A DNA stretch of 18,416 nt from the UHGV virus genome UHGV-0317024. The stretch is one strand, 5' to 3'. The notes under the pieces were generated by a model that saw only the letters and a list, made by a program, of their open reading frames with translations, was not told the DNA's origin and did no database searches. Shown here piece by piece: positions 2-17,807 of the stretch; the stretch's first letter is position 1, and the number at the start of each line of letters is the position of its first letter. Position numbers and translations under genes: made by a program. Origin of the DNA: a virus.

Positions 2-382
2 AAATACAACGTAGAATACATCGGTATTGATGCCACCGGCCTCGGTGTCGGCGTGTTCCAGCTCGTGCGCTCGTTCTATCCTGCCGCGCGCGATATCCGC
101 TACACGCCGGAAATGAAAACCGCAATGGTGCTCAAGGCCAAAGACGTTATCCGCCGTGGCTGTCTGGAATATGACGTCAGCGCCACCGACATCACCAGCT
201 CGTTTATGGCTATCCGCAAGACCATGACCAGCAGCGGACGCAGCGCCACGTATGAGGCCAGCCGCAGCGAGGAAGCCAGCCACGCCGACCTCGCCTGGGC
301 GACCATGCACGCCCTGTTAAATGAGCCACTCACCGCCGGTATCAGCACCCCGCTGACATCCACCATTCTGGAGTTTTACTGA
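2..382 (+). CDS. P: Terminase large (ATPase) subunit, C-terminal part; 5' end lies outside the window
   Basis: Reading frame is open from nt 2 (no stop) to TGA at 380-382, so the listed 53..382 ORF is only the tail of a longer gene. Stop overlaps the portal start codon in a TGATG junction. Call rests on position directly upstream of the portal gene and next to cos, as in the P2 P-Q operon; I do not recall the P2 gpP sequence itself. Confidence 0.7.
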   Translation, partial: KYNVEYIGIDATGLGVGVFQLVRSFYPAARDIRYTPEMKTAMVLKAKDVIRRGCLEYDVSATDITSSFMAIRKTMTSSGRSATYEASRSEEASHADLAWATMHALLNEPLTAGISTPLTSTILEFY

Positions 383-1416
383 TGAGCAAGAAAAAAGGGA
401 AAACACAGCAACCTGCGGCAAAAAAAATGACCGCCAGCGCCCCGAAAATGGAGGCATTCACCTTTGGTGAACCGGTACCGGTACTCGACCGCCGTGACAT
501 TCTGGATTACGTCGAGTGCATCAGTAACGGCAGATGGTATGAGCCACCGGTCAGCTTTACCGGTCTGGCAAAAAGCCTGCGTGCTGCCGTACATCACAGC
601 TCACCGATTTACGTCAAACGTAATATTCTGGCTTCAACGTTTATTCCGCACCCGTGGCTTTCCCAGCAGGATTTCAGCCGCTTTGTGCTGGATTTTCTGG
701 TGTTCGGTAATGCGTTTCTGGAAAAGCGTTACAGCACCACCGGTAAGGTCATCAGACTGGAAACCTCACCGGCAAAATATACCCGCCGTGGCGTGGAGGA
801 GGATGTTTACTGGTGGGTGCCGTCCTTCAACGAGCCGACAGCCTTCGCGCCCGGCTCCGTGTTTCACCTGCTGGAGCCGGATATTAATCAGGAGCTGTAC
901 GGCCTGCCGGAATATCTCAGCGCCCTTAATTCTGCCTGGCTGAATGAGTCGGCCACGCTGTTCCGCCGCAAGTATTACGAAAACGGCGCTCATGCCGGAT
1001 ATATCATGTACGTCACCGATGCCGTGCAGGATCGCAACGATATCGAAATGCTTCGCGAAAACATGGTCAAGTCGAAAGGCCGCAACAACTTTAAAAATCT
1101 GTTTCTCTATGCCCCGCAGGGGAAAGCCGACGGCATTAAAATTATCCCGCTCAGTGAAGTGGCAACGAAGGACGATTTTTTTAATATCAAAAAAGCCAGC
1201 GCCGCTGACCTGCTGGACGCGCACCGCATCCCCTTTCAGCTGATGGGTGGCAAGCCGGAAAACGTCGGGTCGCTGGGCGATATTGAGAAAGTGGCAAAGG
1301 TCTTTGTCCGCAATGAGCTTATCCCGCTACAGGACAGGATCCGCGAGATAAACGACTGGCTCGGTCAGGAGGTCATCCGCTTTAAAAACTACTCACTGGA
1401 CACTGACAACGGCTGA
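382..1416 (+). CDS. Q: Capsid portal protein (gpQ-like), 344 aa
   Basis: 344-aa ORF, same length as P2 gpQ; coupled to the upstream gene by ATG overlapping its stop; ends about 170 bp before the cos site, as in P2. Confidence 0.85.
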   Translation: MSKKKGKTQQPAAKKMTASAPKMEAFTFGEPVPVLDRRDILDYVECISNGRWYEPPVSFTGLAKSLRAAVHHSSPIYVKRNILASTFIPHPWLSQQDFSRFVLDFLVFGNAFLEKRYSTTGKVIRLETSPAKYTRRGVEEDVYWWVPSFNEPTAFAPGSVFHLLEPDINQELYGLPEYLSALNSAWLNESATLFRRKYYENGAHAGYIMYVTDAVQDRNDIEMLRENMVKSKGRNNFKNLFLYAPQGKADGIKIIPLSEVATKDDFFNIKKASAADLLDAHRIPFQLMGGKPENVGSLGDIEKVAKVFVRNELIPLQDRIREINDWLGQEVIRFKNYSLDTDNG

Positions 1417-1730: not shown

Positions 1731-1842
1731 GGCTTATTTAATGACAAATCAACTTAAATTTACAAAATCCACAGGTATGGATACTTTGCGAACATGATAG
1801 GCTTACGAGAATTATCGAGCCTATTTTTGACCGGAGCAATGT

Positions 1843-2784
1843 ATGCAAGGTAAAGTTGACGAACAGCAATCCAATGATATTGAAGCTGAGTTTGGATACT
1901 ATCCAGTAGAAGTTAACGTTGAAACTGATGATTTTTCTTTACTTACTTTACCCGGTCTGGCGGAAAAAACAAATCTTATAAACAATCACAGAAATGTTAT
2001 TAACGGTTGGATATACCCAGGAAACCAAGAAGTATATAACCTCAATGGAGGCATATCCACAATGCCTTTTAGCCAACGAGTATTTGGCTTACCCAAAACA
2101 CACTCACTAAAATTAAAAAATACATCTTCACTAGAAACTCTCAATTTTGCTGTGTGGTGTCTGTCTTTTTTCAAAGGGATAAGATTAACAACTACTGATG
2201 CCGGTTTTTTAGACGCAACCCCAATAAAACCCAGCAAATTAACTGACTTTATTCTGGTCAAGTGCTCTGAAAAAGAGGTTATAGAATTAGCACTCAAATA
2301 CATGTCTAGCGAGACAAAAACCAAACACGCACCAATAAATATAGCAGCAATAGTGCATGCACTATTTTTATCCCAAAACCCACAATACCTTAGCTTCGAA
2401 AAATTCCAGTATCTTTACATGGCACTGGATAGTTGCTTTGCTTTAACATGGGCAGAAAAGAACAAGTGTACAGAAAAGACTCTAAATCACTCCAGGCGCT
2501 TGAAGTGGATCTGCAAAACTTATGGAATACCACGACCATCATGGGTTACAGGCAAAAAAAACATTACAAACATCCGCAATGAAAACTTTCATGAAGCTAT
2601 GTTTCATGGTCAACCACTTGGCTTTACCACTATTAACAATTATCAATATGGAGATGACATATTACAACAAATGCAGGCTTTAATTTGCCGATTACTCGTT
2701 GCGATTCTTGGTGTTAACGCCCCCGATTACATCACATCGAACGTGAACTCTCGTGAATATCATTCACTAACATTAAAAATATAA
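1843..2784 (+). CDS. Hypothetical protein, 313 aa, AT-rich cargo gene; function unknown (weak HEPN-like Rx4H motif at residues 245-250)
   Basis: Long ORF with SD GGAG (1833-1836) 6 nt before ATG. Codon usage is strongly AT-biased compared with flanking phage genes. No Walker or other clear catalytic motif recognised. R245-N-E-N-F-H250 fits Rx4H but that alone is not diagnostic. Confidence 0.6.
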   Translation: MQGKVDEQQSNDIEAEFGYYPVEVNVETDDFSLLTLPGLAEKTNLINNHRNVINGWIYPGNQEVYNLNGGISTMPFSQRVFGLPKTHSLKLKNTSSLETLNFAVWCLSFFKGIRLTTTDAGFLDATPIKPSKLTDFILVKCSEKEVIELALKYMSSETKTKHAPINIAAIVHALFLSQNPQYLSFEKFQYLYMALDSCFALTWAEKNKCTEKTLNHSRRLKWICKTYGIPRPSWVTGKKNITNIRNENFHEAMFHGQPLGFTTINNYQYGDDILQQMQALICRLLVAILGVNAPDYITSNVNSREYHSLTLKI

Positions 2785-2799
2785 AACGACTAAAAATAC

Positions 2800-2825
2800 T
2801 CTCCAGTAACAATAAGTACTGGAGA
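2800..2825. terminator. Hairpin between convergent cargo genes; possible bidirectional terminator
   Basis: 9-bp perfect stem TCTCCAGTA(2800-2808)/TACTGGAGA(2817-2825) with 8-nt loop, between the stop of the 313-aa gene (2784) and the stop of the minus-strand 199-aa gene (2867). The flanking T-tracts are weak. Confidence 0.4.
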
Positions 2826-2866: not shown

Positions 2867-3466
2867 TTACTTAGATAGTTTGTCTTTAATTATATTCAGA
2901 ACACCAATTATTAATTCACTGATTGGCGTGGCCAACTCAATAGTATTAGATGTCGACTTTGTTCTAAAGTCTTTATCTGTCGGGTGTTGAAATGCTGATT
3001 TAAGAAGAGTCAAAAGCAAAGTTAAACCCACACCAAGGATGAATGCAACAATAGCTATTAGAGAACTGGCCGATAACCAATCGGTGGATAAACCAGAAAT
3101 AGATTTTCTAACTTTATTAGTGTCTGAAGATGGTGTTATCCTCTCATCAGCCATCTTCGGATCCGAAGATAAAGCAGAACATTTTTCTGCTGAAACACAA
3201 GTTTGTGTATCTACTTTTTGTGTTATCGCTGCGGCAATACTGCTTTTCGCTTCCAGCAAGCCATTTCCAACAGCCAAAGCAAAGTTAAGCCCCTGCCATA
3301 GAAATGTACAAGCAAAACAAAGCACAACGGCAGAGAGCACTAATCGCATACTTCTACGCTCTATACCATCCCGTCTATCTCGCCTTATAAGGATATCAGG
3401 ATCTAAATCGCCCTTAGGAGTGGTTCCTTGCTCTGGGGACTGTCCAGATAAATCAATATCAGCCAT
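2867..3466 (-). CDS. Predicted membrane protein with two transmembrane helices, 199 aa; function unknown
   Basis: Two hydrophobic segments (about residues 40-67 and 130-155) separated by a Ser/Thr-rich hydrophilic loop; charged N-terminal 39 residues. AT-rich. Lies downstream of and co-oriented with the ImmA-like gene. No strong SD at the first ATG. Confidence 0.55.
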   Translation of the reverse strand: MADIDLSGQSPEQGTTPKGDLDPDILIRRDRRDGIERRSMRLVLSAVVLCFACTFLWQGLNFALAVGNGLLEAKSSIAAAITQKVDTQTCVSAEKCSALSSDPKMADERITPSSDTNKVRKSISGLSTDWLSASSLIAIVAFILGVGLTLLLTLLKSAFQHPTDKDFRTKSTSNTIELATPISELIIGVLNIIKDKLSK

Positions 3467-3505
3467 AAAAAAATCACCCTTACATGTACAAACGTAAAGG
3501 TGATT
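3467..3505 (-). terminator. Hairpin plus U-tract immediately upstream of the 2-TM gene start; candidate attenuator or terminator
   Basis: On the minus strand an ~11-bp stem (one G-U pair) with a 12-nt loop is followed by seven U (plus-strand A-run 3467-3473), directly abutting the ATG at 3466. Confidence 0.45.
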
Positions 3506-3532
3506 TTAAACAGGTTAAAAGTTAAAGGCTAA

Positions 3533-4018
3533 TTAATAAGCCATTCCTAAGCTCTTTAAGCGCCAATGCATAGCGGCTTCTGATACATTAAAGATGCTTG
3601 CTAATCTCAAAGTGCTATCAATACCTTCTCTGGATACCAATTGACGTATAGCAGACTCAGGCATTAACAACTCAGCAGCAAACTTGTTTGCTTCAACCTC
3701 ACGGTAATCACGAGCACCTGTTGAATAATTCCCGACATTATCCCGATGGTACTCTCCGTCCTGGGTATGCCCCAGCACATGATGACCTAACTCGTGTGCA
3801 ACAGTAAAACGTTGACGATTAGAATGTTCACTAGAATCAAAATAAATCCTATGGACACCCTTTTTGATGACAGCCAGACCGCTTAACCCATCGTTGTTAT
3901 AAGCCGATTCCTCAAGTGCTTCAACACGAGCACCCCACGCTTTAGCAAGCTTAAACGGATCGACAGGTAGTCGGCGATCCCAATAGCGGTCAAGCAGTTT
4001 TTTAGCTGCATAGCTCAT
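3533..4018 (-). CDS. ImmA/IrrE-family zinc metallopeptidase-like protein (HEXXH), 161 aa
   Basis: HELGH motif at residues 75-79 (nt 3782-3796) in the context FTVAHELGHHVLGH, with downstream EVEANKFAAELLMPE typical of the ImmA/IrrE (DUF955) fold. Strong SD AGGAGG 5 nt upstream of the ATG. AT-rich cargo. Confidence 0.8.
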   Translation of the reverse strand: MSYAAKKLLDRYWDRRLPVDPFKLAKAWGARVEALEESAYNNDGLSGLAVIKKGVHRIYFDSSEHSNRQRFTVAHELGHHVLGHTQDGEYHRDNVGNYSTGARDYREVEANKFAAELLMPESAIRQLVSREGIDSTLRLASIFNVSEAAMHWRLKSLGMAY

Positions 4019-4660
4019 GGTTGCCTCCTACGTTAAAAAAGTTAAGTATGCACAGCCATATCACAGTTGTTATTTTATGTCAAGGCTGTTTTTCAGCCAT
4101 TACTATAACACTAATCCACGTTTTCCCATAACATTTTCGACATCATATATGCATTCAGTTCTGCATATAGAGCTTATCTTTGCTGATAACACGAGATGAA
4201 TACGCGCAACCAGCCCACGATTTATAAAAAACCTTATAAATCAGAATATTGAGTTAAAAAAACACTAACTACTTGCGCAGCGAGTTGTTAAACCTCAGCG
4301 ATACTAAAAGAAAATTTCAGAGTCACCGAAGTTTCCACAGAAAACGCAACTTAATGATTTTATTGGAATTTATGTCGCTATTTTTAATTACTTGTTTAAA
4401 TCCGCCATATTGAAACTGTGCATTTCTAGCCACTCACAACTTTAAAAAATTTACATTGCTTTCAAGACCTTATCATCCGTAGTCTCTGCTTTTTACTTTG
4501 AGCTATATCAAAAAAAGCTCAAACATCCTTGATGCAAAACCAGTATTACACAACATAAAATGCAACCAGAAACAACGACATACTATATGTTGTGTTGTTC
4601 AGGTCCTCTGTTCGGTGATATGCCAGATCACTTTGCGTTTAAACAGAGCATTATTTCAGG

Positions 4661-4674
4661 GCAAGACTTCGCTC
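4661..4674 (+). repeat. Direct repeat copy 1, GCAAGACTTCGCTC
   Basis: Exact 14-nt match to 4925-4938; each copy is followed within 3-25 nt by AGTCACTC. Confidence 0.6.
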
Positions 4675-4739
4675 AATAGTCACTCCGCCTTAGAAGCGCA
4701 TATATCGGCGGAAATTGCCCTCTGCTTACAGGAGGCGAT

Positions 4740-4853
4740 ATGAAGAAGTGCTATTACTGCATTCTCGTTCTGGCCCTCTTTGGCTATCCATATGGTAGTC
4801 CGAGTGGTTTGTCAGTAAACGTCAGTAATATCCATGTAAGTATTTTTCTTTAG
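4740..4853 (+). CDS. Candidate small hydrophobic peptide, 37 aa (MKKCYYCILVLALFGYPYGSPSGLSVNVSNIHVSIFL)
   Basis: Not in the supplied ORF track. Canonical SD AGGAGG (4730-4735) 4 nt before ATG 4740; stop TAG 4851-4853; followed 18 nt later by a terminator; hydrophobic Cys/Tyr-rich N-terminus. Confidence 0.3.
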   Translation: MKKCYYCILVLALFGYPYGSPSGLSVNVSNIHVSIFL

Positions 4854-4861
4854 TATGCTTC

Positions 4862-4895
4862 AAACAAAAAAACCACCTGCCAGGGTGGTTTTTTT
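4862..4895. terminator. Bidirectional rho-independent terminator
   Basis: Stem CCACCT(4873-4878)/GGGTGG(4883-4888, one G-U pair), flanked by A-run 4862-4872 and T-run 4889-4895. Can terminate the small plus-strand ORF and minus-strand transcription leaving gene A. Confidence 0.65.
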
Positions 4896-4924
4896 GCGCC
4901 CGTCATCAATCCGATGAAAGACTA

Positions 4925-4938
4925 GCAAGACTTCGCTC
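4925..4938 (+). repeat. Direct repeat copy 2, GCAAGACTTCGCTC
   Basis: Exact 14-nt match to 4661-4674. Confidence 0.6.
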
Positions 4939-5155
4939 GAGATGAATTATGCTTCGACATAAAGTCACTCGCAATGGTTTTATTAACCGAAATAGATGCT
5001 CTTTTATGACTCGAATCAAATAGCTGCCTTCAATTACATGCTAACGATTCAATACAATTTAGCCTTCTGATTCAACACGCTATTGCTCCTCATCTACCTT
5101 AGAGGTGTTTCGCATAATCCATTCAAAGACATATAAAATCACGCTGTATTTTTAC

Positions 5156-7432
5156 TCAAATGGGTAACAAAAATCCCGGCCAATCATCAGCGACCTGATA
5201 AGTGAAAGGTTTCCCGTCATAATTTACGGTCGCGCCACGCGCCAGCGCCTCAAGCTCCCATCGTTGCGGCCTGATACCGTTCTGAGCGAGATCAACGCGG
5301 ATACGGGTAATTTGCAATCGTTCCGACCGGGTCAGTCTGGCCGATGGTGCAATTTCATGCGGTTTTAACGGGCTTCCGTTTCTTTGCTGACGGTTTGGCG
5401 TTCTCCGGTCGTGTTTTAATGCGCCCCTGAGCGCCCTCACGACCTCCGGGTCATTCCATTCGATAACATCGTCATCAACCAGATTAAGCACTGCTGCGGC
5501 GTGCTCAGAAGGTGTGGGAGCCGGTAACGAAGTATCACCACCGGTGAGCTTTCCACAGTTATTGACAGGACTCCGAGGCGCGGCGATGCCGCTTTTTAAA
5601 GTCAAAGGCTGAACGACCGGAACTTTCGGCACAATGCGCCAGTCCGTCGTTCTGGTGATATGAATATGACGCGCGCCGAGATGCGGCGCGTAAATGCCGA
5701 CCACTCTCTCGACCTCTTCCTCGTACTCGTTAACGTCATCCGACAGACTACGGGCGACCCTGACAGTCTGACAATCGCGCGGGACATTTGCCCCACCCTG
5801 CGCGCTGATATACAGCGCAAAATCACCACTGTCTGCGGCGGCGCGTGCAGCCTCGACGCGCTCGTCAAACTCATCAGCAATGCTGACGCCGCGAGGCAAT
5901 TTGCGTAGTTCACGGTAAGCCCCCATTGTCGGCAGGCCAACCGTTTTAAATTGCGGAATGCGCCACGTTGACGCCCATGCGGTAACAGCCGCTGCAGTGT
6001 CTTTCAGCGGCCTGCCGGTGTCGTTATCGAGCTGACCATCCAGTGCATAGCCGTCGATGTTTTTTGAAATGTATTTCGCGATATATCCCGCAGCACCGCC
6101 CCGGTTAAGGTGTTTTGCCTGAAAACGGTTTCGCGCGGCTCCTCTTTCGTCGCCATCCTCTTTGAGCGCATAGCGACGCATGATTTCGATAATCTGGTTA
6201 CGCTGGCGTGGATGACAAAAAAGCATCATATGCCAGTGCGGCGTTCCGTCGTGGTGTGGCTCGACGACTCGCAAACCGTAGACCTGTAAATCATTATCCT
6301 TGAATGCCGTGCGCATCAGGCTCCAGATACGGCAGAGATAACGCTGCGCATCCTTTGGATTAAATGCCTCATCGTTCCAGCCGTGATTAAGCTGAACGGT
6401 TTTACTTTCGCCTTTTCCGACCTGACGTGTCGGGTGATACTTTGACGGCGCGGTCAGCGTGATAAACATCCCCACATCACCCTCTGCGGCGGCGTAACGC
6501 TCAATACCGGCAATGGTGTTCATCAGCTCCATCCGGCGAATTTCAGGATTAGAAATACTGCCCATCACCTTACTGATAAGGTCGATGCGCTCGCCGGTTT
6601 CCCTGTTTTCAAGGTCACACGATTTAAGAAATTCCAGATTTGCCTGGCGGCGCGCACGCACATCACGAATGGCGTGTTTACTGGCATAAGGAGAACGGTC
6701 TTTATTGACCTCCCCGACAGCTATCAGTAACGCCTCATGCCAGCGCATACGCTGGCCTTTAAGCTGATGAGTCCACCACTCATCGTTAAACAGGCGGGCA
6801 ATGGCAGAATATGCCTGCCTCGTGGTCATCTGTCCTTTACGGTATTTTTTCCAGTAGAGCGGGGAAATATTGAAAGCACGTGCAGCGCCAGCAACATGAC
6901 CATACAGGTGAGCCTGCGCCTCATCCGTAAACAGCGATTCTTTTTCACCATGCGCATCCACCCATGCATCGCAGAGTTCCTCATACATCATGAAAAGCTG
7001 CGATGAGATACGGGCGGCAAACTTTTTCAGCTCCTTGTCATTCATTCCCGGCAGGCGCGCATAGTGGTCACGCTCTGCCAGAAACAGCAACGACGCGTCG
7101 GTGTTCATTTCATGGCGCTGATTCACACGCTCAATGCGCGGCCATAAACGACGCTGAAAAGTAGATGTGAGGAAATAAAACCCGTGCACCGGGCTTTTAT
7201 TGCGCCGGATGTAGTCATAGCGTGAAGTAAACAGCGAGCGCAAAAAGTAAGGCAGGCGGTTAATCGTGGATAAAACACCTTGCACCTGACGCATCTCGTC
7301 ACGTGTAAGAGGTCTTTCGCGCCCGACAGCCTCGCGTGGCGCGTTCCATGCATAAGCACCGGTAAACGCCTTACCGGTGCCTGCGGTAAATGCTGACGGA
7401 GGGACAAAACGCCCGGAGGCTTTAACGGCCAT
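5156..7432 (-). CDS. A: Rolling-circle replication initiation endonuclease (gpA-like)
   Basis: The 772-aa ORF begins at a TTG at 7474; I place the start at the ATG at 7432 (MAVKASGRFVPP...), which matches the P2 gpA N-terminus as I recall it and gives 758 aa against 761 in P2. Position downstream of the early operon is as in P2. Confidence 0.85.
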   Translation of the reverse strand: MAVKASGRFVPPSAFTAGTGKAFTGAYAWNAPREAVGRERPLTRDEMRQVQGVLSTINRLPYFLRSLFTSRYDYIRRNKSPVHGFYFLTSTFQRRLWPRIERVNQRHEMNTDASLLFLAERDHYARLPGMNDKELKKFAARISSQLFMMYEELCDAWVDAHGEKESLFTDEAQAHLYGHVAGAARAFNISPLYWKKYRKGQMTTRQAYSAIARLFNDEWWTHQLKGQRMRWHEALLIAVGEVNKDRSPYASKHAIRDVRARRQANLEFLKSCDLENRETGERIDLISKVMGSISNPEIRRMELMNTIAGIERYAAAEGDVGMFITLTAPSKYHPTRQVGKGESKTVQLNHGWNDEAFNPKDAQRYLCRIWSLMRTAFKDNDLQVYGLRVVEPHHDGTPHWHMMLFCHPRQRNQIIEIMRRYALKEDGDERGAARNRFQAKHLNRGGAAGYIAKYISKNIDGYALDGQLDNDTGRPLKDTAAAVTAWASTWRIPQFKTVGLPTMGAYRELRKLPRGVSIADEFDERVEAARAAADSGDFALYISAQGGANVPRDCQTVRVARSLSDDVNEYEEEVERVVGIYAPHLGARHIHITRTTDWRIVPKVPVVQPLTLKSGIAAPRSPVNNCGKLTGGDTSLPAPTPSEHAAAVLNLVDDDVIEWNDPEVVRALRGALKHDRRTPNRQQRNGSPLKPHEIAPSARLTRSERLQITRIRVDLAQNGIRPQRWELEALARGATVNYDGKPFTYQVADDWPGFLLPI

Positions 7433-7697
7433 ATGAGCCAAAAGCCTCTGAACAACGCTTGCTGAGTTGCTCAACCTGCGCGTTTAAATCAGCAAAAGAT
7501 TTTGCGCTTCCGGTCAGAATATCGTGATGCATCAGGCCGGAAACGAGCTGGCCTAATTTCGGGTAATAACCAACCACCGCCAGCCATTCCTGACCGGCGT
7601 TTTTACCGCTTTCCGCTCTCTTTTTCTCGTGGAGAATAAACTGAAAGCTGTCACTGGTAACGACATAACGTTCGCCAATTTCAATACGAATACTCAT
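7422..7697 (-). CDS. Early-operon hypothetical protein, 91 aa (P2 orf83 position)
   Basis: ORF with stop overlapping the A start and start overlapping the upstream gene stop (ATGA coupling); synteny with the P2 early operon. Confidence 0.6.
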   Translation of the reverse strand: MSIRIEIGERYVVTSDSFQFILHEKKRAESGKNAGQEWLAVVGYYPKLGQLVSGLMHHDILTGSAKSFADLNAQVEQLSKRCSEAFGSYGR

Positions 7698-9014: not shown

Positions 9015-9202
9015 ACCCTCCGGCTTTTCAGAAAGGTCAGAGCCTTTTTTAACGGACTCTGTTTTTTGGTGCGGATAATGATTCCCTTACGCCCCTTACC
9101 GTGGGTGATGGTGAAGTCAATCGCCCTGGGGCTTTCGTTACGCAATAACTGAGCAATACAACGCGGCTCATTCATAATCACAACCCCATCCACAAAAGCC
9201 AT
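9005..9202 (-). CDS. Small early-operon ORF, 65 aa (P2 orf78 position)
   Basis: ORF bridging the cox stop and the B start with short overlaps; no recognisable motif. Confidence 0.35.
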   Translation of the reverse strand: MAFVDGVVIMNEPRCIAQLLRNESPRAIDFTITHGKGRKGIIIRTKKQSPLKKALTFLKSRRVWK

Positions 9203-9465
9203 GCATCACGCTGTTCAACCGGTCGGTTATAAAACGCCTCACGTACAGCGCGATTAAACTCAGGAATGAAAACCCATTTTTCACCGGCACGAGCCTTCGG
9301 TTTGCAAGGATCACGCAATTCAATAATTGGTAATTTATTTGCCTTCACCATTTCACTGACGGCTGTCTTTGGCTTCCCTAATAAATCAGCAAATTTATCC
9401 ACATGAACCGCATCAAGCGGATACTGAATCACATAATTTTCAGCGTCCATATATGGTACCCTCAT
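9178..9465 (-). CDS. cox: Cox-like excisionase and early repressor
   Basis: About 90 aa, first gene of the leftward early operon, divergent from C; C-terminal region resembles the P2 Cox tail (W-L-x-W-x-G-L). The true start may be the internal ATG at 9450 (MDAENY...). Confidence 0.7.
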   Translation of the reverse strand: MRVPYMDAENYVIQYPLDAVHVDKFADLLGKPKTAVSEMVKANKLPIIELRDPCKPKARAGEKWVFIPEFNRAVREAFYNRPVEQRDAWLLWMGL

Positions 9466-9526
9466 AGGATCCAGCCCTTTCTAAACCACTCAAAACCGTT
9501 TAGATGCTGGTTTATTCTCAAATCAA

Positions 9527-9579
9527 TGGAACCTATATAGGTTCCAGTTTTGAGGGAATTTAGTCCCTATATAGGCACC
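9527..9579. promoter_or_regulatory. Immunity switch region (divergent early and repressor promoters) with two operator-like palindromes
   Basis: Perfect 20-bp palindrome TGGAACCTATATAGGTTCCA (9527-9546) and a second copy of the core CCTATATAGG (9566-9575), centres 34 bp apart, in the 121-bp gap between divergent cox and C. Confidence 0.55.
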
Positions 9580-9586
9580 ATGTCAA

Positions 9587-9880
9587 ATGAAATTAAGCGA
9601 AAAGATTAAGGCCTTGCGTGAGGCTGAAGGGCTAAGCCAATCAAAATTCTGTGAAATCATAGAGTTACCGCTAAGCACACTTAAAAAATATGAAGGAGGA
9701 AACTTTGAACCCGGTGGCACAGCTTTGCTAAAAATCACTATGCATCCCACATTCCAAAAATATGCTCTATGGCTTATGACAGATAAAACCGCGCCGGACG
9801 CAGGACAAATCGCACCGGCTCTCGCGCACATTGGGCCAGAGTCAACAGAGTCCAACCACTCCGCGAAAAGGATTGGCTAA
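9587..9880 (+). CDS. C: Immunity repressor C-like (HTH), 97 aa
   Basis: Small HTH protein divergent from cox; the motif GQIAPALAH matches the P2 C repressor C-terminal region as recalled; followed by int as in P2. Confidence 0.8.
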   Translation: MKLSEKIKALREAEGLSQSKFCEIIELPLSTLKKYEGGNFEPGGTALLKITMHPTFQKYALWLMTDKTAPDAGQIAPALAHIGPESTESNHSAKRIG

Positions 9881-9949
9881 CTCTATATAAAGATTACATT
9901 TTCACCATTTGCTACCAAGATGGTGAATACAGCGCCGGAGGGCTTTCTT

Positions 9950-10930
9950 ATGGCAATTAAGAAGCTCGATGATGGTCGCTATGAAGTGGACATTAGACCT
10001 CGCGGTCGCGACGGAAAACGCATCCGCAGGAAATTCGAAAGAAAAGCTGAAGCACTAGCATTTGAGCGATACACAATCGCCAATGCCAGTCAGAAAGAAT
10101 GGGGAGGCCAGCGAGCAGACCGCCGGACTTTGAGTGAGTTGCTGGACATCTGGTGGAAATATCACGGGCAAAACCACGAGCATGGAACAAAAGAGTTTAA
10201 TCATCTACTCAAAACCATCAGCGGCATAGGTGATATACCAGTGAGCAGGATGAGCAAAAGGGCTTTGATGGATTATCGTTCCATGCGACTACGTGATGGT
10301 ATCAGTGCCGCAACGATAAACCGTGACATGTACCGATTATCCGGCATGTTCACAAAATTAATTCAATTGGATGAATTTTCCGGGCAACACCCAATTCACG
10401 GACTGCCGCCACTGGCGGAGGCCAACCCTGAAATGACGTTCCTGGAAAAAGCAGAAATCGAAAAACTGTTAAATGTTTTGGCTGGTGATGACTTACTTGT
10501 CGCGCTTTTATGTCTGAGCACCGGAGGAAGATGGACGGAAGTTGCCACGCTAAAACCAGCACAGATTACAAATTGCAGGGTTACCTTCCTGAAAACCAAA
10601 AACGGTAAAAAGCGAACCGTGCCGATTTCTGAGGAACTGGAGAAAAAAGTTAAAGAGGAGGCCAGCGCCAAATTATTCAAAGTTGATTATGAGAAATTTT
10701 GCGGGATTTTACGCAGAGTGAAACCTGATATACCACCCAATCAGGCAACCCACATCCTGCGGCATACATTCGCAAGCCATTTCATGATGAATGGGGGCAA
10801 TATAATCGCACTGCAACAGATTCTGGGACATGCGAGCATTCAGCAGACGATGGCCTATGCGCACCTTGCGCCTGACTATCTGCAAAATGCCGTCGCTCTG
10901 AATCCACTAAAAGGCGGAGTGACGTTATAA
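9950..10930 (+). CDS. int: Tyrosine integrase
   Basis: Start placed at the internal ATG (MAIKKLDDGRYEV..., the P2 Int N-terminus) preceded by SD GGAGG. C-terminal catalytic region carries R...HxLRHT...Y (HILRHTFASHF, LGHASIQQTMAYAHL). Confidence 0.9.
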   Translation: MAIKKLDDGRYEVDIRPRGRDGKRIRRKFERKAEALAFERYTIANASQKEWGGQRADRRTLSELLDIWWKYHGQNHEHGTKEFNHLLKTISGIGDIPVSRMSKRALMDYRSMRLRDGISAATINRDMYRLSGMFTKLIQLDEFSGQHPIHGLPPLAEANPEMTFLEKAEIEKLLNVLAGDDLLVALLCLSTGGRWTEVATLKPAQITNCRVTFLKTKNGKKRTVPISEELEKKVKEEASAKLFKVDYEKFCGILRRVKPDIPPNQATHILRHTFASHFMMNGGNIIALQQILGHASIQQTMAYAHLAPDYLQNAVALNPLKGGVTL

Positions 10931-10945
10931 ATTTCCCCCTCTGAG

Positions 10946-10964
10946 TGTCCACATAGTGTCCACA
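10946..10964. repeat. Arm-type integrase binding repeats, left arm (TGTCCACA x2)
   Basis: TGTCCACAtagTGTCCACA; this is the reverse complement of the P2 Int arm-site consensus TGTGGACA as I recall it. Confidence 0.6.
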
Positions 10965-11141
10965 CTCAAGAAATTTTGAAACCGCTCCAAACCCTTACAG
11001 CTTTCGATAAGTACCTGTTTTTACTTTTGATTGCATGTAAGTAATTGATAAAAAAAACCCCCACATCATGTGGGGGAAGACAGGGATGGTGTCACAAAAA
11101 AGCACCTAACCTGATGATATAAATGGATTTATATCAAGCAC

Positions 11142-11160
11142 TGTCCACATAGCGTCCACA
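11142..11160. repeat. Arm-type integrase binding repeats, right arm (TGTCCACA x2)
   Basis: TGTCCACAtagcGTCCACA; near-identical to the 10946-10964 copy. Confidence 0.6.
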
Positions 11161-11175
11161 TCGACCATAAATAAA

Positions 11176-11200
11176 GCCCCTCAACTGAGGGGCTATTTTT
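11176..11200. terminator. Hairpin plus T-run downstream of ogr and int; likely bidirectional terminator
   Basis: Stem GCCCCTCA(11176-11183)/TGAGGGGC(11186-11193) followed by TATTTTT on the plus strand and TTTATTT on the minus strand. Confidence 0.5.
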
Positions 11201-11204
11201 GTGA

Positions 11205-11423
11205 TCACATCCACATAATTTGCTGCCCTGACGGCAACGGGTGCGGCCTTACGGCGTGGACTTCTCCCGGCTTCACGATGTATCGCTGTACCGACTCATA
11301 AGTGATGAACGTGGCGCTGCAATTCACGTTCTGACACTGGTGATAACGCTCTTTTGTCGTGTCAGTGATATAGCGGCTTGTACGCGCATGTGCGGCATGC
11401 TGGCATAAAGGACAATGAAACAT
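11205..11423 (-). CDS. ogr: Ogr zinc-finger late-gene activator, 72 aa
   Basis: Starting at the internal ATG gives MFHCPLCQHAAHARTSRYITDTTKERYHQCQNVNCSATFITYESVQRYIVKPGEVHAVRPHPLPSGQQIMWM, 72 aa, matching P2 Ogr as recalled, with the CxxC...CxxxxC zinc finger. Confidence 0.9.
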   Translation of the reverse strand: MFHCPLCQHAAHARTSRYITDTTKERYHQCQNVNCSATFITYESVQRYIVKPGEVHAVRPHPLPSGQQIMWM

Positions 11424-11504
11424 CGCGAGCACCTCTTCCGGTTTTGTTGATGGTGCCATTTTAGTTAATTTGTCCTTATAAAACAAACAGATAAAATAAA
11501 AACA

Positions 11505-12668
11505 TTACTCATCATCTTCTGTTTCGTACTCCACATCAGAAAGCCTGACCTCAAGCTCTAAGGACGTCGTGAAGCCGCGATTATTCAGAAAATGTGTCAC
11601 CTTAGTGATTGTCCAGTCCTGCTCGTCTATGACGCGCTTAAAACCTGACACTTTGACCGGCGTTTCCGTGTAAATATCTGCACGACCGGTAGCCAGGCTG
11701 ATGGAAAACTCCGCAACGCCCCGTTGCAGTTTATCCCACTTCGCCTGAGCGGCGCGCATGGCCTGCGCTTTCGTGGCATATACCGTGGTCAGGGCAAAAA
11801 CATTGTCAGCCTCACCGGCCATGTATTCACCTTCGCGCGCTTCCGGTACTTTTGGCGCTTTCTTCTGCGTGACCGGTTTCGCTTTCGGGTGCTCCAGTGC
11901 GCGCAGGTGTTTCTCTTTCTTTTTGCGTTTCAGTTTTACCTTCTGCTTTTGTGGCTTCGGGTCTTTGGTGTGTAACCACTTTGCCGTTACGCCGGTGTAG
12001 GCTCCACGGTCAGCAATCGCAAAATGATGACGGTCGCCGTCGCTGCGGGTGATGGTAATCTGCGGGATTTTTTTACCGCTGGCCGTCACCCCCTGCCCGG
12101 CTTTGAGAAACAACAGTTTTCCCATTTTTACCGACACCTCACCGCCGTTGCGTTCTGCTAGACGGGTCAGGAATTTCGCATCAGACTCCTGCGACTGATC
12201 GATGTGCGGGATTTTAATTCCGGCCAGTGACGGAGCGACACTGGCTTCCAGCCTGTTACGGGAGGCTATCGCCTCAACAATCGCACCGAGCGTGGTGTCA
12301 TGCCAGGAGCCTTCACGGCGGGAATTGAGCGTGCCACGAAAATCTGCACTCCGGGCCCGGATGGTGACCACATCCGGCGCGCCCCGGTGTTCTACCTCAT
12401 CAACGGTGAATTTCCCTTTGCATACCAGGGCAAAACCTTTCCAGCCGATATACACCGTCAGGACAGCGCCACGAACCGGCAGCCCGACCTGCCCGTCGGC
12501 ATCGTTCAGTTCAATATCAAGCTGGTCAGCCTCAAAGCCCCGGTTATCCGTCAGGGTCATGCTCATCAGACGGCCGCTGATATTGCCGGTAATATCCCTG
12601 CTGTCGAGCATCAGCATGTAATCCGGCGTCAGCGTACTGCCTGCATCAAATGTCAGTGCATCCAGCAT
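11505..12668 (-). CDS. D: Tail protein gpD-like, 387 aa
   Basis: Same length as P2 gpD and same position (last gene of the tail operon before ogr). Confidence 0.85.
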   Translation of the reverse strand: MLDALTFDAGSTLTPDYMLMLDSRDITGNISGRLMSMTLTDNRGFEADQLDIELNDADGQVGLPVRGAVLTVYIGWKGFALVCKGKFTVDEVEHRGAPDVVTIRARSADFRGTLNSRREGSWHDTTLGAIVEAIASRNRLEASVAPSLAGIKIPHIDQSQESDAKFLTRLAERNGGEVSVKMGKLLFLKAGQGVTASGKKIPQITITRSDGDRHHFAIADRGAYTGVTAKWLHTKDPKPQKQKVKLKRKKKEKHLRALEHPKAKPVTQKKAPKVPEAREGEYMAGEADNVFALTTVYATKAQAMRAAQAKWDKLQRGVAEFSISLATGRADIYTETPVKVSGFKRVIDEQDWTITKVTHFLNNRGFTTSLELEVRLSDVEYETEDDE

Positions 12669-13147
12669 TATCCCGCCCCCGTCATACCTGTGAATCTGGT
12701 CGCCAGACTGCCAGCCTTACCGATGAGCGATTCCGCCTGTTTACCGATATCACCATAAAGCGCGGCCAGTGATTCATCAACGCGGGTGAGTGACAGCGTA
12801 AAATCAATTTTCCGGGGTGTGCCGTCTGCAAAGAAAATACTCCCTGTTTCACTCACCCTGCTGATGACATACATACCGTAAATCATGCCAGTGCCATCCA
12901 GCAACGGCCACGCCCGGCCTTCCTCTGCCATCAGCCTGAGCGTGGTCATCGTCAGCTTGCCGCCGGTCAGTTCGGGATAAAGCACGCCGGCAAGCGTGAT
13001 GTTTTCCTCGCCAACACCGAGAAACTGGTAGGCATCCCGTTTACCGATACGGGAATTTGACGGCCAGCGATAATCTGATTCACGCTGCATGGTCTGGTGT
13101 GGCAGCGTCTGGCGCATAAAAACAAACATACCTAACGCGAGCATCAT
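12668..13147 (-). CDS. U: Tail protein gpU-like, 159 aa
   Basis: Same length as P2 gpU; its stop overlaps the D start. Confidence 0.85.
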   Translation of the reverse strand: MMLALGMFVFMRQTLPHQTMQRESDYRWPSNSRIGKRDAYQFLGVGEENITLAGVLYPELTGGKLTMTTLRLMAEEGRAWPLLDGTGMIYGMYVISRVSETGSIFFADGTPRKIDFTLSLTRVDESLAALYGDIGKQAESLIGKAGSLATRFTGMTGAG

Positions 13148-13161
13148 TTTTCGTCACCTCC

Positions 13162-15609
13162 TTAACCGTCATGCATCATGCTGGCACGGGCGCGCGCACG
13201 TTTATCCCGCTCGTATTTTTCGAGCGCATCCTGTAACTGGCGGTCAAGCTGTGTCCCCGGTGCAGTACCACCCGTCAGGCTGATGTGATATTCGTTTTTA
13301 CTCTGGTCCACATAAGAGCGGCCAGCCGGTGCCGTGACCGGCTGATAAGCCTGATAGCCTGCATAAGAGCTGGTCGCCGGAATATAACCACCGCTGCCAT
13401 ACGTGGCGGCTTGAGTTCTGGCGGCGGTCTGGTCAAGTGTGTCTGACTCTTTGTTGATAACACCGAGTTTTTCCAGTACCCAGTCAATACCGCTGCGCAG
13501 TTTGTTGAACGCATTAAGCGGCAGCATCAGCGCGTCAGCCAGTGCCTGCCCGAACATGACCCCCGTGTCACGGCAACGGTTCAGGGTATCCTGAGTGGCT
13601 TTGACCGGGGCAATCAGGTTTTTAAACCACTGCCACGCGGCCTGTAACTTTTCACCCAGCCAGTCAAACACCGGCTTAAGTGGCGTGAACAGTTCCCCCA
13701 CCGGCGCAAATGCCACTTTCAGCCCTTCAACCACACCGCCAAAGAATGCGCTGACAGGCTCCCAGTATTTACGGATAAGCAACGCCCCGGCGACAATTGC
13801 GGCCACCACGACCACAACCGGCCAGCTAATAGCCCCGATGGCGGTCATAACAGCACTGCCAACTGTCGTGAAGATTGCCCCCATTGCGCCTGCTGCCGCG
13901 ATAATGGCATTGATGCCGGTGATAACCGGCCAGGCTACAAGACCAATGGCACCGATGATGCCAGTAAGCGCCAGCGCGCCACCGACAATGAGGCCGATGG
14001 TTGACGCCAGTGATTTGTTTTTCTGGATCCAGCCGTCGAGTTTTAACACATACTTTGTGGCCGTCTGAGTGAGCTTACGCAGTGCGCCTTCCTGCTGGTC
14101 AAACAGGTCAGTCCCCACCGCCTCATAAGCGGACTGAAACTCCTTAAAGTCACCGCCGAGGTTGTCCTGCATGATATTTACCAGTTCTGCGGTCTTTCCG
14201 TCTGAGGCTTTAAACGCAGCGGTCAGTTTGTCCAGCTTTCCGGTTGAGGCGGCAGTCATCAGCACAGCGGCGGCTGAGCTGGCCTCCTCCCCGAAAATGG
14301 TTTTCATGTATTCGGCCTGCTGGGCAGTACCGAGCCGGTTTTTCTCAAAACTGGCCTGCATTTCTTTCAGAATGGTAAATACTGGTCGGGTGTTTCCCTT
14401 GCTGTCTGAGGTTTTCACGCCAAGCTCTTTGAGTGCATCCCATGCTTTTCCCGTTGGTGCCTGCAGGCGGCTTAACACGGCACGGCTTCCCGTCCCCGCC
14501 ATTGAGCCTGTGATTTTTGCATCATGCAGCGCCCCGACCATTGCGGCGGTTTCTTCAATGCTGACACCGGCATTTTTTGCCACAGGTGCGGCATAGGTCA
14601 GCGCATCGCTCATGCCGTCAAAATCGGCGGCAGTTTTGTTCATCGTCATGGAGAGAACATCCCCGATATGAGCGACCTTATCGTTTGAAAGCTGAAAGGC
14701 GGATTTCATCCCCATCAGCAGGGCGGCGTTTTCTTCCATCGTGCGGCGGTTCGCCAGCGCCATATTCAGCGTGACCGGCGTTGCCGCCTGAATGGCATCA
14801 ACATCCCCACCCGCTTTCGCGATGATTATCTGTGCACCGGCCGCATCATCCGCCGAGGCGGCGGTATTGTCGCCGAGCTGGCGCGCCTGCTTGCGTAGTG
14901 CAGCCATTTCGGCGGAGTCTTTTGCCACACCGAGCACAGCCTGCAATTCTGAGTTTTTCTGCGCAAACTCATAACCGGGCATCAGCAACTTAACTCCGGC
15001 CATCGTTCCCGCCGCCGCAATCCCCACACCGGCAGCGCCCACTGAGGCCATATTTCCGGCCAGTTCCTTTCCGGCCTGATAACGCTGTTTTACTGCGTTA
15101 AGTTTTGCCTGTTGTGCACTGACACGCGCCAGTGCGTCGCGCTGACGGTTAAGCTGTGCGGTGGTTTCACTGATACGGTTTTTCAGTCCCTGCTCATCAT
15201 GTGCAAGATTGCGGGTATTAATTCCCACAGCGGCCAGTTCCCGCTGCTGGCGTTTAACGGAATCCGTCAGGCGGTTATATTTCGCCTGTAAGTCCTCCGC
15301 CGCACGCTTTGCGGATTCCAGCACTTTCGCCTGAGCACGGGTCGGACGTTCGGTATTTTTAAACTGTGTGGCAAGGGCTTCGGCCTCCTGCCGAGCCTTT
15401 TCAAGTGCATGACCAGTCACGGCGAGCTGTGCACTGGTCTTGCGGAATCCCTCAATACGGGATGCCTGACCGTTCAGCTCGCGCAGTGATTTTTGTGTTT
15501 CCCGGATATCCCCCGACAGCGATTTGCTCGCTGTGCGGATGGATTTAAACGGGCGGGATGCCTGGTCAACAGCCCTGAGCAATACCTGTAATTTTACATT
15601 GTTACTCAT
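13162..15609 (-). CDS. T: Tail tape measure protein gpT-like, 815 aa
   Basis: 815 aa as in P2 gpT; N-terminal coiled-coil-like region, Ala/Gly-rich hydrophobic central segments and a long helical C-terminal part typical of tape measure proteins. Confidence 0.9.
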   Translation of the reverse strand: MSNNVKLQVLLRAVDQASRPFKSIRTASKSLSGDIRETQKSLRELNGQASRIEGFRKTSAQLAVTGHALEKARQEAEALATQFKNTERPTRAQAKVLESAKRAAEDLQAKYNRLTDSVKRQQRELAAVGINTRNLAHDEQGLKNRISETTAQLNRQRDALARVSAQQAKLNAVKQRYQAGKELAGNMASVGAAGVGIAAAGTMAGVKLLMPGYEFAQKNSELQAVLGVAKDSAEMAALRKQARQLGDNTAASADDAAGAQIIIAKAGGDVDAIQAATPVTLNMALANRRTMEENAALLMGMKSAFQLSNDKVAHIGDVLSMTMNKTAADFDGMSDALTYAAPVAKNAGVSIEETAAMVGALHDAKITGSMAGTGSRAVLSRLQAPTGKAWDALKELGVKTSDSKGNTRPVFTILKEMQASFEKNRLGTAQQAEYMKTIFGEEASSAAAVLMTAASTGKLDKLTAAFKASDGKTAELVNIMQDNLGGDFKEFQSAYEAVGTDLFDQQEGALRKLTQTATKYVLKLDGWIQKNKSLASTIGLIVGGALALTGIIGAIGLVAWPVITGINAIIAAAGAMGAIFTTVGSAVMTAIGAISWPVVVVVAAIVAGALLIRKYWEPVSAFFGGVVEGLKVAFAPVGELFTPLKPVFDWLGEKLQAAWQWFKNLIAPVKATQDTLNRCRDTGVMFGQALADALMLPLNAFNKLRSGIDWVLEKLGVINKESDTLDQTAARTQAATYGSGGYIPATSSYAGYQAYQPVTAPAGRSYVDQSKNEYHISLTGGTAPGTQLDRQLQDALEKYERDKRARARASMMHDG

Positions 15610-16029
15610 TCGTGTTTCCGCTTCGCCGGAGCGCCTTTTCGCGCCATGTGATGAGTTCGGTCAGGCTCATGGGATACAGTTCTGATGGCGGCCAGTGAAA
15701 TATCACTGCCACATCCGCCATCAGGTCATCGACCGACAGATTTTTCGGAAACGTCACTGCACCGAGTTCGGCGACAAAAAACCGACCACCTTACCGGCCA
15801 GCGCCACAAGGTCAGGCAGTTCCAGCGCGGCGACTTCCTGCTCGGTCAGCATCGGTGCCGTCATGCGCGGCAGCACCTTAATCAGTGCATCGACTTCAGA
15901 GTTCGCGACCTCTGCCAGACTGACACCGCGCAGCGTCCCGGCATTGGGTTTCATCAGCGTGACCTGTTCGATAACCTGCTCACCACGTTTGACCGGATTG
16001 TCCAGGGTAATGACATTTTCTTTGTTCAT
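15602..16029 (-). CDS. E': Tail assembly chaperone E+E', made by -1 programmed ribosomal frameshift at TTTTTTG (plus-strand 15775-15781)
   Basis: Hand translation of the -1 frame after the slippery site gives an open extension (...FVAELGAVTFPKNLSVDDLMADVAVIFHWPPSELYPMSLTELITWREKALRRSGNTNE) ending at TAA 15602-15604, overlapping the T start by 8 nt. This is the P2 E/E+E' arrangement. Confidence 0.75.
15754..16029 (-). CDS. E: Tail assembly chaperone gpE-like, 91 aa
   Basis: 91 aa as in P2 gpE; ends ...VGFLSPNSVQ with the slippery heptamer T-TTT-TTG eight codons before the stop. Confidence 0.85.
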   Translation of the reverse strand: MNKENVITLDNPVKRGEQVIEQVTLMKPNAGTLRGVSLAEVANSEVDALIKVLPRMTAPMLTEQEVAALELPDLVALAGKVVGFLSPNSVQ

Positions 16030-16085
16030 GGTTTTCTCACTTCTGAATCGGGGTTAACCGGTCAGCCTGGCTGACCGGATGAAAA

Positions 16086-16604
16086 TCACAGGCCGATATT
16101 GCGGCGGTGTTGCTCCAGCCGGTCGACGCCGTTCACCTTCTCAATCATGTTGATGGTGTCAATTTCGACCAGCTCCTTACCATCCATCGTCAGCCGGAAA
16201 TAGGTGCAGACCACGGAGATTTTCGACTCGGTGTCTTCTCCCTGTTTCCCCTCGCCGGTGTCGATTTCTTTCTGACGGCCACGCATGACCACCTCGACGG
16301 CCACCGTTTCGCCGGTATCGTCGCGCTGGTAAGAGCCGGCAAAACGAATCGGCACGGCATCCACACCGGTTGCGGCGTAAAGCTCCCAGATAACCGAATC
16401 CGGGAAGCCCCCGAGCGACCACTCCATTGACAGCGCATCGTCATCAAGGCCGAGGTCTACCGGTGCGCTGCCGTTCATCCCCGCACCGCGATAGTTTTCA
16501 AGCTTACGGGTCAGTTTTGGCAGCGTGACGGACTTTGCAACGCCCTGATAGCTGTAGCCGTTCAGAAAGACGTTCATTAACTTGAGTTTGCGCGGCATTG
16601 CCAT
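16086..16604 (-). CDS. FII: Tail tube protein gpFII-like, 172 aa
   Basis: Same length and position as P2 FII. Confidence 0.9.
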   Translation of the reverse strand: MAMPRKLKLMNVFLNGYSYQGVAKSVTLPKLTRKLENYRGAGMNGSAPVDLGLDDDALSMEWSLGGFPDSVIWELYAATGVDAVPIRFAGSYQRDDTGETVAVEVVMRGRQKEIDTGEGKQGEDTESKISVVCTYFRLTMDGKELVEIDTINMIEKVNGVDRLEQHRRNIGL

Positions 16605-16616
16605 CGGTCAGGCTCC

Positions 16617-17807
16617 TTAATTGCTGTTAACCGAGGTGACCAGATTTGCCAGGTATTTATCGGTAATACGCTGGCGCAGGGTCAGGTTTTCAAGAGGAGG
16701 CACCGGTGTATAGTCGTAGTCGATATACAGTTTTCCGGCCTTGAGGGTTTCCGCATCGTTGGATTCTTCGCTGAACCAGCAGGTCGCATCCACGATATAG
16801 CCGTTTGTTTTCAGCTCACGGAATTTGGCATTGATGCCGTCAACGATGTCGCGAATCAGCGTTGCAGTGATGGGCTTGTCCACCGCCCACATGTGCGCCT
16901 CAGCCATCGTGTCGGCCAGCACCTGCGCGGTGCGGGTGTAGTTTTCAAAGAGGAACAGCGGGTCATCAGAGCAGGTACGGTTACCCCAGAAGCGGAAACC
17001 GTCACGGCGAATCAGCGTTGTGACGCCTGACTCGTTAAGCAGGTCAGCATCAGTACCGGACTCCTGCAAATCCCAGAATACAGAGGCGCTGATGCCGGTA
17101 ACACCGTTCACCCCGACATTGGACAGCGTTTTATGCCAGCCCTGCTCCTGGTCGATTTTAGCGCGCAGCCCCAGCGCACGGGCGGTGGCATACGCGGTGG
17201 CGGTGGTACTGGTGACCGTATCCCATGCGAGGAAATTCGGCCAGATGACCATCAGCTCACGCTGGCTGAAATTCTGACGGTAGGCTTTCACCTCGGAAAT
17301 GGTTTTACAGCCCCATGCGCTGATATACCCGAAAGCGCGCAGCTTCTGACAGACTGATGCCAGTGCAACAGCCACCTCTTTGGTATCCAGTCCCGGCACG
17401 CCGAGAATACGCGGTTTAACACCAGTTACCGACTCCGCCGCCAGCAGGGCTTTCAGTCCGGTGTACTGACCGTTTTCGTCGGTGGTGCCGATGATATTGG
17501 AAACGGTCTGCGCGAGTTTCGTTTCTTCGTCATCGCCGGTGCCGTCTTCCACGCGCACGACAACGGTGACCGGTTTTGACTGGTCGGCGATGGCCTGCAA
17601 CGATGCCGCCAGCGTGCCTTTTTTACCGGCCTTTGCAATTGCGCTCTGCACATTGGTAATCAGCACAGGTTTATTGAGGGGGAAGGTTTCCGCATCCGCA
17701 TCGCTGGCCGTGCAGACCATGCCGACAATGGCCGTGGATACGGTGGAAATGACGCGGGTGCCGTCGTTAATCTCCAGCACCTGCACGCCGTGATGATAGT
17801 CACTCAT
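16617..17807 (-). CDS. FI: Contractile tail sheath protein gpFI-like, 396 aa
   Basis: Same length and position as P2 FI; SD GGAG upstream of the ATG. Confidence 0.9.
   Translation of the reverse strand: MSDYHHGVQVLEINDGTRVISTVSTAIVGMVCTASDADAETFPLNKPVLITNVQSAIAKAGKKGTLAASLQAIADQSKPVTVVVRVEDGTGDDEETKLAQTVSNIIGTTDENGQYTGLKALLAAESVTGVKPRILGVPGLDTKEVAVALASVCQKLRAFGYISAWGCKTISEVKAYRQNFSQRELMVIWPNFLAWDTVTSTTATAYATARALGLRAKIDQEQGWHKTLSNVGVNGVTGISASVFWDLQESGTDADLLNESGVTTLIRRDGFRFWGNRTCSDDPLFLFENYTRTAQVLADTMAEAHMWAVDKPITATLIRDIVDGINAKFRELKTNGYIVDATCWFSEESNDAETLKAGKLYIDYDYTPVPPLENLTLRQRITDKYLANLVTSVNSN

Follow-up and report, generated by a model that had tools for sequence, protein, structure and literature searches.

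The window analysed here, 18,416 nucleotides of the UHGV virus genome UHGV-0317024, is the genome of a P2-like (Peduovirus) phage of the E. coli/Salmonella type. Going inward from its cos site, the first gene encodes a protein of 313 amino acids (aa), here called ORF313, and we suggest that ORF313 and its relatives are most likely a new family of HEPN ribonucleases (RNases), acting as one-gene anti-phage or abortive-infection proteins. In E. coli this protein is recorded as the hypothetical protein WP_001161722.1, it matches PHROG 5937 (phrog_5937, 'unknown function') with an E value of 3e-205, and a literature search found no paper that tests or names it. The gene is carried by 98 of 5,426 complete E. 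coli genomes (about 2%) and is also present in many strains of Salmonella, Klebsiella, Pseudomonas, Acinetobacter and Aeromonas. Homologues number 603 in a database clustered at 90%, and a search among clusters at 50% identity gave 655 matching representatives, almost all about 300 aa long and aligned end to end. These roughly 650 clusters are spread over gamma-, beta- and alphaproteobacteria, where they occur in P2-like and other phages, conjugative elements and islands.

The residues R245-N-E-N-F-H250 form the sole Rx4-6H motif in ORF313. An earlier reading of the sequence alone (the sequence-only reading) had noticed that they fit the Rx4-6H signature of HEPN RNases, which the codons CGC AAT GAA AAC TTT CAT confirm, and had cautioned that a lone Rx4H is weak and prone to chance. 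The caution was sound: in 20,000 composition-preserving shuffles of ORF313, Rx4H arose in 21%, Rx4-6H in 50% and RNx3H in 1.9%. The motif is nevertheless far beyond chance, because it is conserved across homologues. Thirty-nine homologues with 44% identity or more show no change at R245, N246, H250 or E251. Among 83 cluster representatives, the most distant at 26% identity, just six columns never vary (G112, E186, R245, H250, G260 and R283), N246 and E251 are kept in 93%, and the spacing from R to H has no insertions or deletions; the exceptions at N246 among those listed include H and A. R-N-x3-H-E is kept in every one of 46 homologues from viral contigs, and the family consensus can be written h-R-N-x-x-h-H-E-[A/G]. 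Judged by these alignments, the R-x4-H motif is genuine, and nothing else in this widespread, unnamed family is better conserved; a motif that varied among homologues, which the sequence-only reading had named as one result that would speak against it, was not what we found.

Further residues bear on the HEPN reading. In HEPN domains the position following the conserved R is mostly occupied by N, D or H and takes part in catalysis (Anantharaman et al. 2013, PMC3710099), and N246 of ORF313 fits this rule. A conserved acidic residue is also found upstream, on helix 2 and often as Ex3[K/R] (PMC3710099). In the 83 representatives E186 is invariant and D196 is 90% conserved, with no K or R at +4. 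The earlier view that the motif had no second one to support it has to be corrected: the signature is strengthened by the N next to R, by the E that follows H, and by E186 and R283, which never vary.

A monomer prediction by AlphaFold2, for which the 39-sequence alignment was used, gave a pLDDT of 80.5 and a pTM of 0.82. In the C-terminal part, helices are predicted at 143-154, 163-176, 184-206, 216-227, 241-255 and 273-288. The motif is placed on helix 241-255, after which come a loop of low confidence (253-268) and the last long helix; in the HEPN arrangement the motif is on helix 3 and is followed by a loop and helix 4 (PMC3710099). We read the predicted fold as an up-down bundle of four helices that carries the motif on helix 3 and resembles solved HEPN domains. 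When 48,164 PDB chains were compared, the best structural matches were HEPN domains and not other four-helix bundles: Csm6 (8jbc, score 7.1), a HEPN protein (4nqf, 6.8), the sacsin HEPN domain (3o10, 6.7), AF0298 (2hsb, 6.5), YutE (1ylm, 6.4), AbiA (8oz7, 6.3), HepT (7ae2, 5yep and 8xdj, 6.0-6.2), further HEPN proteins (1wwp, 1ufb and 1wol, 5.4-5.7) and AbiV (9bj5, 5.2). A Foldseek search of the PDB returned no match. The domain had been expected in the C-terminal 90 or so residues and is larger, a helical region of about aa 143-300. The structure prediction that had been proposed as a check gave a helical, HEPN-like C-terminal domain with the motif on a helix before a loop and the last helix, and the possible HEPN-like motif is now supported both by conservation and by structural neighbours dominated by HEPN domains.

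The N-terminal domain (about aa 10-142) is predicted to be mixed alpha/beta and is strongly conserved, many of the kept residues being aromatic or polar: F17, G18, P21, W56, R79, F81, T86, H87, F102, G112, R114 and D135. It is modelled with confidence in the full-length protein, and its pLDDT falls to 66 when it is folded alone; because of this drop, the model suggests that the domain packs against the helical domain. An RyR identity for aa 12-60 was set aside, since the match to a bacterial RyR profile was weak (E 0.12-0.33) and had no Pfam or structural backing.

At the level of sequence families, ORF313 had no match in Pfam (E up to 1), PADLOC or NCBIfam, and scans of 39, 83 and 54 relatives against the same collections (the last two sets being 83 full-length proteins and 54 C-terminal fragments) gave no significant family. 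Single relatives had sub-threshold matches within the HEPN clan, to HEPN_RiboL-PSP (0.074), HEPN_Apea (0.08-0.15) and a HepT-like family (0.11), which are not significant but are suggestive at the sequence level. A profile search of the PDB with ORF313 gave no HEPN entry, and no significant sequence-profile match to a described HEPN family was obtained. ApeA, DARNA/PD-T7-3, HepT and AbiF-type proteins were all ruled out, and the ORF313 family is best described as an undescribed HEPN-like family.

ApeA, reportedly described by Gao et al. in 2020, is like ORF313 in being a single-gene system with a HEPN domain at its C-terminus and the motif R-N-x-h-x-H (RNLIVH in Ec2ApeA against RNENFH in ORF313). 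We read the ApeA motif, as RNLIVH or RNKITH, from full-length Ec1, Ec2 and Ec3 ApeA sequences taken from E. coli genomes. ApeA has about 580 aa in three domains, namely a helical N-domain, a Mid domain and a split HEPN domain with insertions, and its non-catalytic N-terminal part forms a regulatory pocket with the HEPN domain (bioRxiv 10.64898/2026.01.26.701840). The two proteins differ in size, 583 and 601 aa in ApeA against 313 aa, and ORF313 consists of an alpha/beta N-domain and a helical C-domain. The ApeA models of PADLOC, NCBIfam (the one from which PGAP derives the name 'HEPN family anti-phage protein ApeA') and Pfam (HEPN_Apea, PF18739) matched neither ORF313 nor its relatives, hhalign of the ORF313 C-terminal profile against Ec1, Ec2 and Ec3 ApeA gave a probability of 0.5% and an E value of 0.12, and BLASTP of the family against ApeA found no match. 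ORF313 is thus ruled out as an ApeA by hhalign, BLASTP, size and domain architecture. An 'H-x-x-R-I-x-W' upstream of the motif was considered as a link, but it is present in Ec2 and Ec3 and not in Ec1 ApeA, and we treat it as a coincidence. UniProt gives the ORF313 homologue A0A3A8EY04 (P0063) the automatic name 'Apea-like HEPN domain-containing protein', which was not reproduced with the current Pfam. As a separate observation, P2-like prophages carry both Ec2ApeA and Ec3ApeA as cargo (L034 2501-4252; L036 2501-4254), situated between the baseplate gene V and virion morphogenesis/tail genes and not in the region between genes Q and A. The Ec3ApeA-type gene of EC416 is annotated as two open reading frames (ORFs) of 196 and 372 aa, which suggests a disrupted copy.

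Other known systems differ in more basic ways. In DARNA/PD-T7-3 (456 aa) the HEPN domain is N-terminal (aa 1-159) and is followed by a Pds5-like C-terminal domain (bioRxiv 10.64898/2026.02.22.705581), whereas the HEPN-like part of ORF313 is C-terminal; as PADLOC also gave no match for ORF313 or its relatives, this identity was ruled out. HepT has an adjacent MNT nucleotidyltransferase antitoxin, MntA, and the motif Rx4HxY, whereas ORF313 has RNxxxHE[A/G] and an extra N-terminal domain of 140 aa. No nucleotidyltransferase was seen in the best 25 of the 70 matched families of ORF313 neighbours, and HepT was ruled out by the missing MNT partner and by a motif followed by E-[A/G] instead of x-Y. 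An AbiF/AbiD-type protein was ruled out because there is no match to Pfam Abi_2 and there are no adjacent RNA tandem repeats. No tandem repeat adjoins ORF313, the only array being a 15-bp unit present twice at 1654-1683 near cos, and no Rfam family, RNA antitoxin or non-coding RNA was found beside it. Old and Tin of P2 occupy the same slot, from cos and the portal gene Q to gene A, and are likewise accessory genes whose expression benefits the lysogen, but they are proteins unrelated to ORF313. Old is an ABC ATPase with a TOPRIM nuclease; a Pfam scan found neither an ABC ATPase nor a TOPRIM domain in ORF313.

The location of the gene is consistent with a role in defence. The region between Q and A of P2, known as "old/tin", is a hotspot of anti-phage systems (Rousset et al. 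2022, PMC9122126), and in the window ORF313 is a variable accessory gene between Q and A, adjoining cos. The protein is included in the hotspot table of that study, as 'hypothetical' only. On 42 of the 46 viral contigs with a homologue the phage is P2-like and the gene comes right after portal Q and cos and before gene A, with alleles of 100% to 49% identity. Five loci (L074, L075, L077, L078 and the Enterobacter prophage L012) have no other gene in this interval, and in P2-EC67 the gene stands with two unrelated ORFs. Homologues are also present on viral contigs of 30-58 kb without the P2 portal and gene A (L079-L082). Outside phages, a homologue lies at the end of a trb conjugation operon common to Xanthomonas, Achromobacter, Albidiferax and Thauera, and another 3 kb from Gabija in a P. 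aeruginosa island; in single loci the neighbours include Avs3, PDC-S49 or a CBASS-like set with matches to E1-E2, JAB and NucC. The other genes around the homologues belong to phages, conjugation or recombinases. In Aeromonas it adjoins an AlkZ-like gene. No conserved partner gene was found across 26 bacterial loci, except where a whole element is shared, and for this reason we regard the ORF313 gene as an autonomous, horizontally mobile single-gene module. In the conjugative element (L017, L018, L020 and L028, with the Albidiferax locus L023 truncated), the homologue adjoins DUF2274, TrbI and TrbG-like genes. Four neighbours in these loci match the PADLOC candidate model PDC-M06B (E 1e-80), although this model may simply capture a conjugation gene.

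By analogy with ApeA, DARNA and general HEPN enzymology, we propose the following mechanism. The C-terminal half would be a divergent, metal-independent RNase of HEPN type with an active site formed by R245, N246 and H250, probably with help from E186, E251 or R283. The composite active site would probably lie across a homodimer, as in other HEPN enzymes. The N-terminal domain would pack on the HEPN domain and hold the RNase silent in the lysogen, until a competing phage infects the cell and so provides a trigger that frees it. The RNase would then cut host or phage RNA, halt translation and abort the infection. The commonest target of such enzymes is the anticodon loop of tRNA. Gating of this kind has precedents in ApeA and DARNA, both single HEPN proteins in which a non-catalytic domain gates tRNA cleavage (bioRxiv 10.64898/2026.01.26.701840; 10.64898/2026.02.22.705581). 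The analysis itself showed the motif and how strongly it is kept, the predicted fold and its mostly HEPN neighbours, the place in the hotspot, the missing partner gene and the presence on phages, conjugative elements and islands; RNase activity, dimerisation, autoinhibition by the N-domain, trigger, RNA target and anti-phage phenotype are what we infer for ORF313. That the whole chain holds, with ORF313 a self-contained single-protein conflict system in which an N-domain gates a HEPN RNase that aborts infection, we consider slightly better than an even chance. A bolder version, in which ORF313 founds a new, widespread one-protein anti-phage system, with an undescribed alpha/beta sensor that has no relatives in structure and controls a very divergent HEPN RNase, and with both trigger and RNA target unlike those of ApeA and DARNA, falls a little short of even.

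The same protein might be a HEPN-type RNase that does not serve defence, either as an addiction or maintenance toxin of the prophage or as a means of reshaping host or phage RNA in the P2 cycle or in lysogeny. The motif and the structural evidence apply equally to such a role, the Q-A hotspot also holds non-defence cargo such as partition systems and a cytolethal distending toxin (PMC9122126), and the Aeromonas copy is among housekeeping-type genes, not in a defence island. However, we found neither a conserved antitoxin-like partner gene nor upstream tandem repeats or an Rfam RNA that would point to an RNA antitoxin. The family also recurs on phages, conjugative elements and islands near Gabija, Avs, the CBASS-like set and PDC genes, as typical defence genes do. 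ORF313 is an accessory gene that has been swapped, as many alleles, into P2-like phages that otherwise resemble each other, and so it is not needed for the phage cycle. A role outside defence is unlikely in our view.

Somewhat less likely still is that the C-terminal domain is a HEPN look-alike without RNase activity, whose invariant R, H and E serve another chemistry or a ligand, for example in a phosphate or nucleotide pocket shared with the N-domain. In known non-catalytic HEPN domains it is the Rx4-6H motif that has been lost (PMC3710099), whereas in ORF313 the R, the next N and the H at exactly +5 are the best-conserved positions, and the preference of the fold comparison for HEPN domains over other bundles also argues for a genuine HEPN domain.

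It might also be supposed that ORF313 is part of a three-gene system with the second cargo module of the window, a 161-aa CapP/ImmA-like M78 metallopeptidase and a 199-aa protein with two putative transmembrane (TM) segments. The peptidase matches Pfam Peptidase_M78 (E 4e-21) and has CapP, a CBASS-associated protease, as its best PADLOC match (E 1e-30), with RmrA-like similarity as well; the 199-aa protein has two hydrophobic, TM-like stretches by eye and no family match. The three genes together fill the hotspot in this phage and its near-identical relatives, in L076 homologues of both genes (58% and 88% identical) again come after an allele of 49% identity, and the arrangement 'Peptidase_M78 + hypothetical + hypothetical' in the table of Rousset et al. 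includes the ORF313 protein. The pair is, however, convergent on the opposite strand with a bidirectional hairpin in between. Of the 46 viral loci 37 lack the pair, as do all bacterial loci except the identical prophage; it accompanies only the 100% allele and the one in L076. It also occurs in P2 hotspots without ORF313, as the Rousset tables show for the peptidase, with a possible TM199 variant (PMC9122126), and ORF313 is the only hotspot gene in the five loci named above. We therefore hold a three-gene system to be very improbable. The hairpin has a 9-bp stem between the ends of ORF313 and the 199-aa ORF and is terminator-like on both strands, which makes ORF313 its own transcription unit; upstream, a GGAG ribosome-binding site precedes the ATG at 1843 by 6 nt, and the annotation of P2-EC67 also has one in this position before its ORF313. 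No ImmR- or CapH-type HTH partner gene is visible next to the M78 peptidase. Finally, that the motif is a chance Rx4H without function, as its frequency in shuffles might allow, is effectively refuted by its invariance, together with the flanking N and E, in the 83 representatives and in all viral copies.

If the proposed function of ORF313 as an infection-gated HEPN RNase is confirmed, a 'hypothetical protein' would become a named candidate defence gene, one unannotated arrangement of the P2 hotspot would be filled, and a compact HEPN nuclease with a new regulatory domain would join the infection-gated RNases. No new principle would follow, because HEPN effectors made of one protein are already an established theme in the hotspots of phages and of defence genes, and the finding is expected more than surprising. 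As an autonomous and widespread protein of 313 aa, ORF313 is a good and cheap candidate for experiments.

Table 1. Features of the window, with positions counted from its first letter.
Feature	Position	Strand	Basis or remark
End of terminase gene and portal gene Q	53-1416	+	
GGAG ribosome-binding site of ORF313	1833..1836	+	Read from sequence
ORF313, 313 aa	1843..2784	+	ORF and translation
N-terminal mixed alpha/beta domain	1870..2268	+	Predicted; presumed sensor or regulatory
C-terminal helical, HEPN-like domain	2269..2742	+	Predicted
Codon of invariant E186	2398..2400	+	Candidate upstream acidic residue of HEPN active site; role inferred from PMC3710099
Codons of R245-N-E-N-F-H250	2575..2592	+	Predicted HEPN catalytic motif
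Hairpin between convergent ORF ends	2800..2825		
161-aa M78 metallopeptidase, then 199-aa protein	2867-4018	-	Second cargo module
Replication gene A	5156-7474	-	
cox-, C- and int-like genes	9178-10930		
ogr, D, U, T, E, FII, FI	11205-17807	-	

The cargo block from cos to gene A is 3.5 kb long, with a G+C content of 35-45% compared to 52-58% in the core genes. The 19-mer GGCGAGGCGGGGAAAGCAC, the cos sequence of P2, has an exact match on the minus strand at 1586-1604, and the phage record OQ383618.1 begins at exactly this position. The integrase gene (9920-10930, plus strand) adjoins ogr (11205-11486, minus strand), and cos is internal; the gene order is therefore that of a circular or vegetative phage and not of an integrated prophage, and attP should be located within 10931-11204. 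Just past the tail-sheath gene FI, a 125-aa ORF on the minus strand (17867-18244) resembles by eye a serine recombinase of the Hin/Gin type in its C-terminal half, and appears to be truncated at its N-terminus.

Downstream of gene A there is an AT-rich stretch of 1.1 kb (4019-5155) without an annotated feature, in which an Rfam scan found no family above threshold. In most of the 150 matching E. coli genomes its 765 bp nearest to gene A (4391-5155) show a conservation of about 86% or more, and none of the 12 records listed has an annotated feature under the match. Within this part, a 37-aa hydrophobic ORF on the plus strand (4740-4853), beginning MKKCYYCILVLALFG..., has an AGGAGG site 5 nt upstream and is followed at about 4866-4895 by a strong GC hairpin flanked by runs of A and T. 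It may be the gene of a small membrane peptide.
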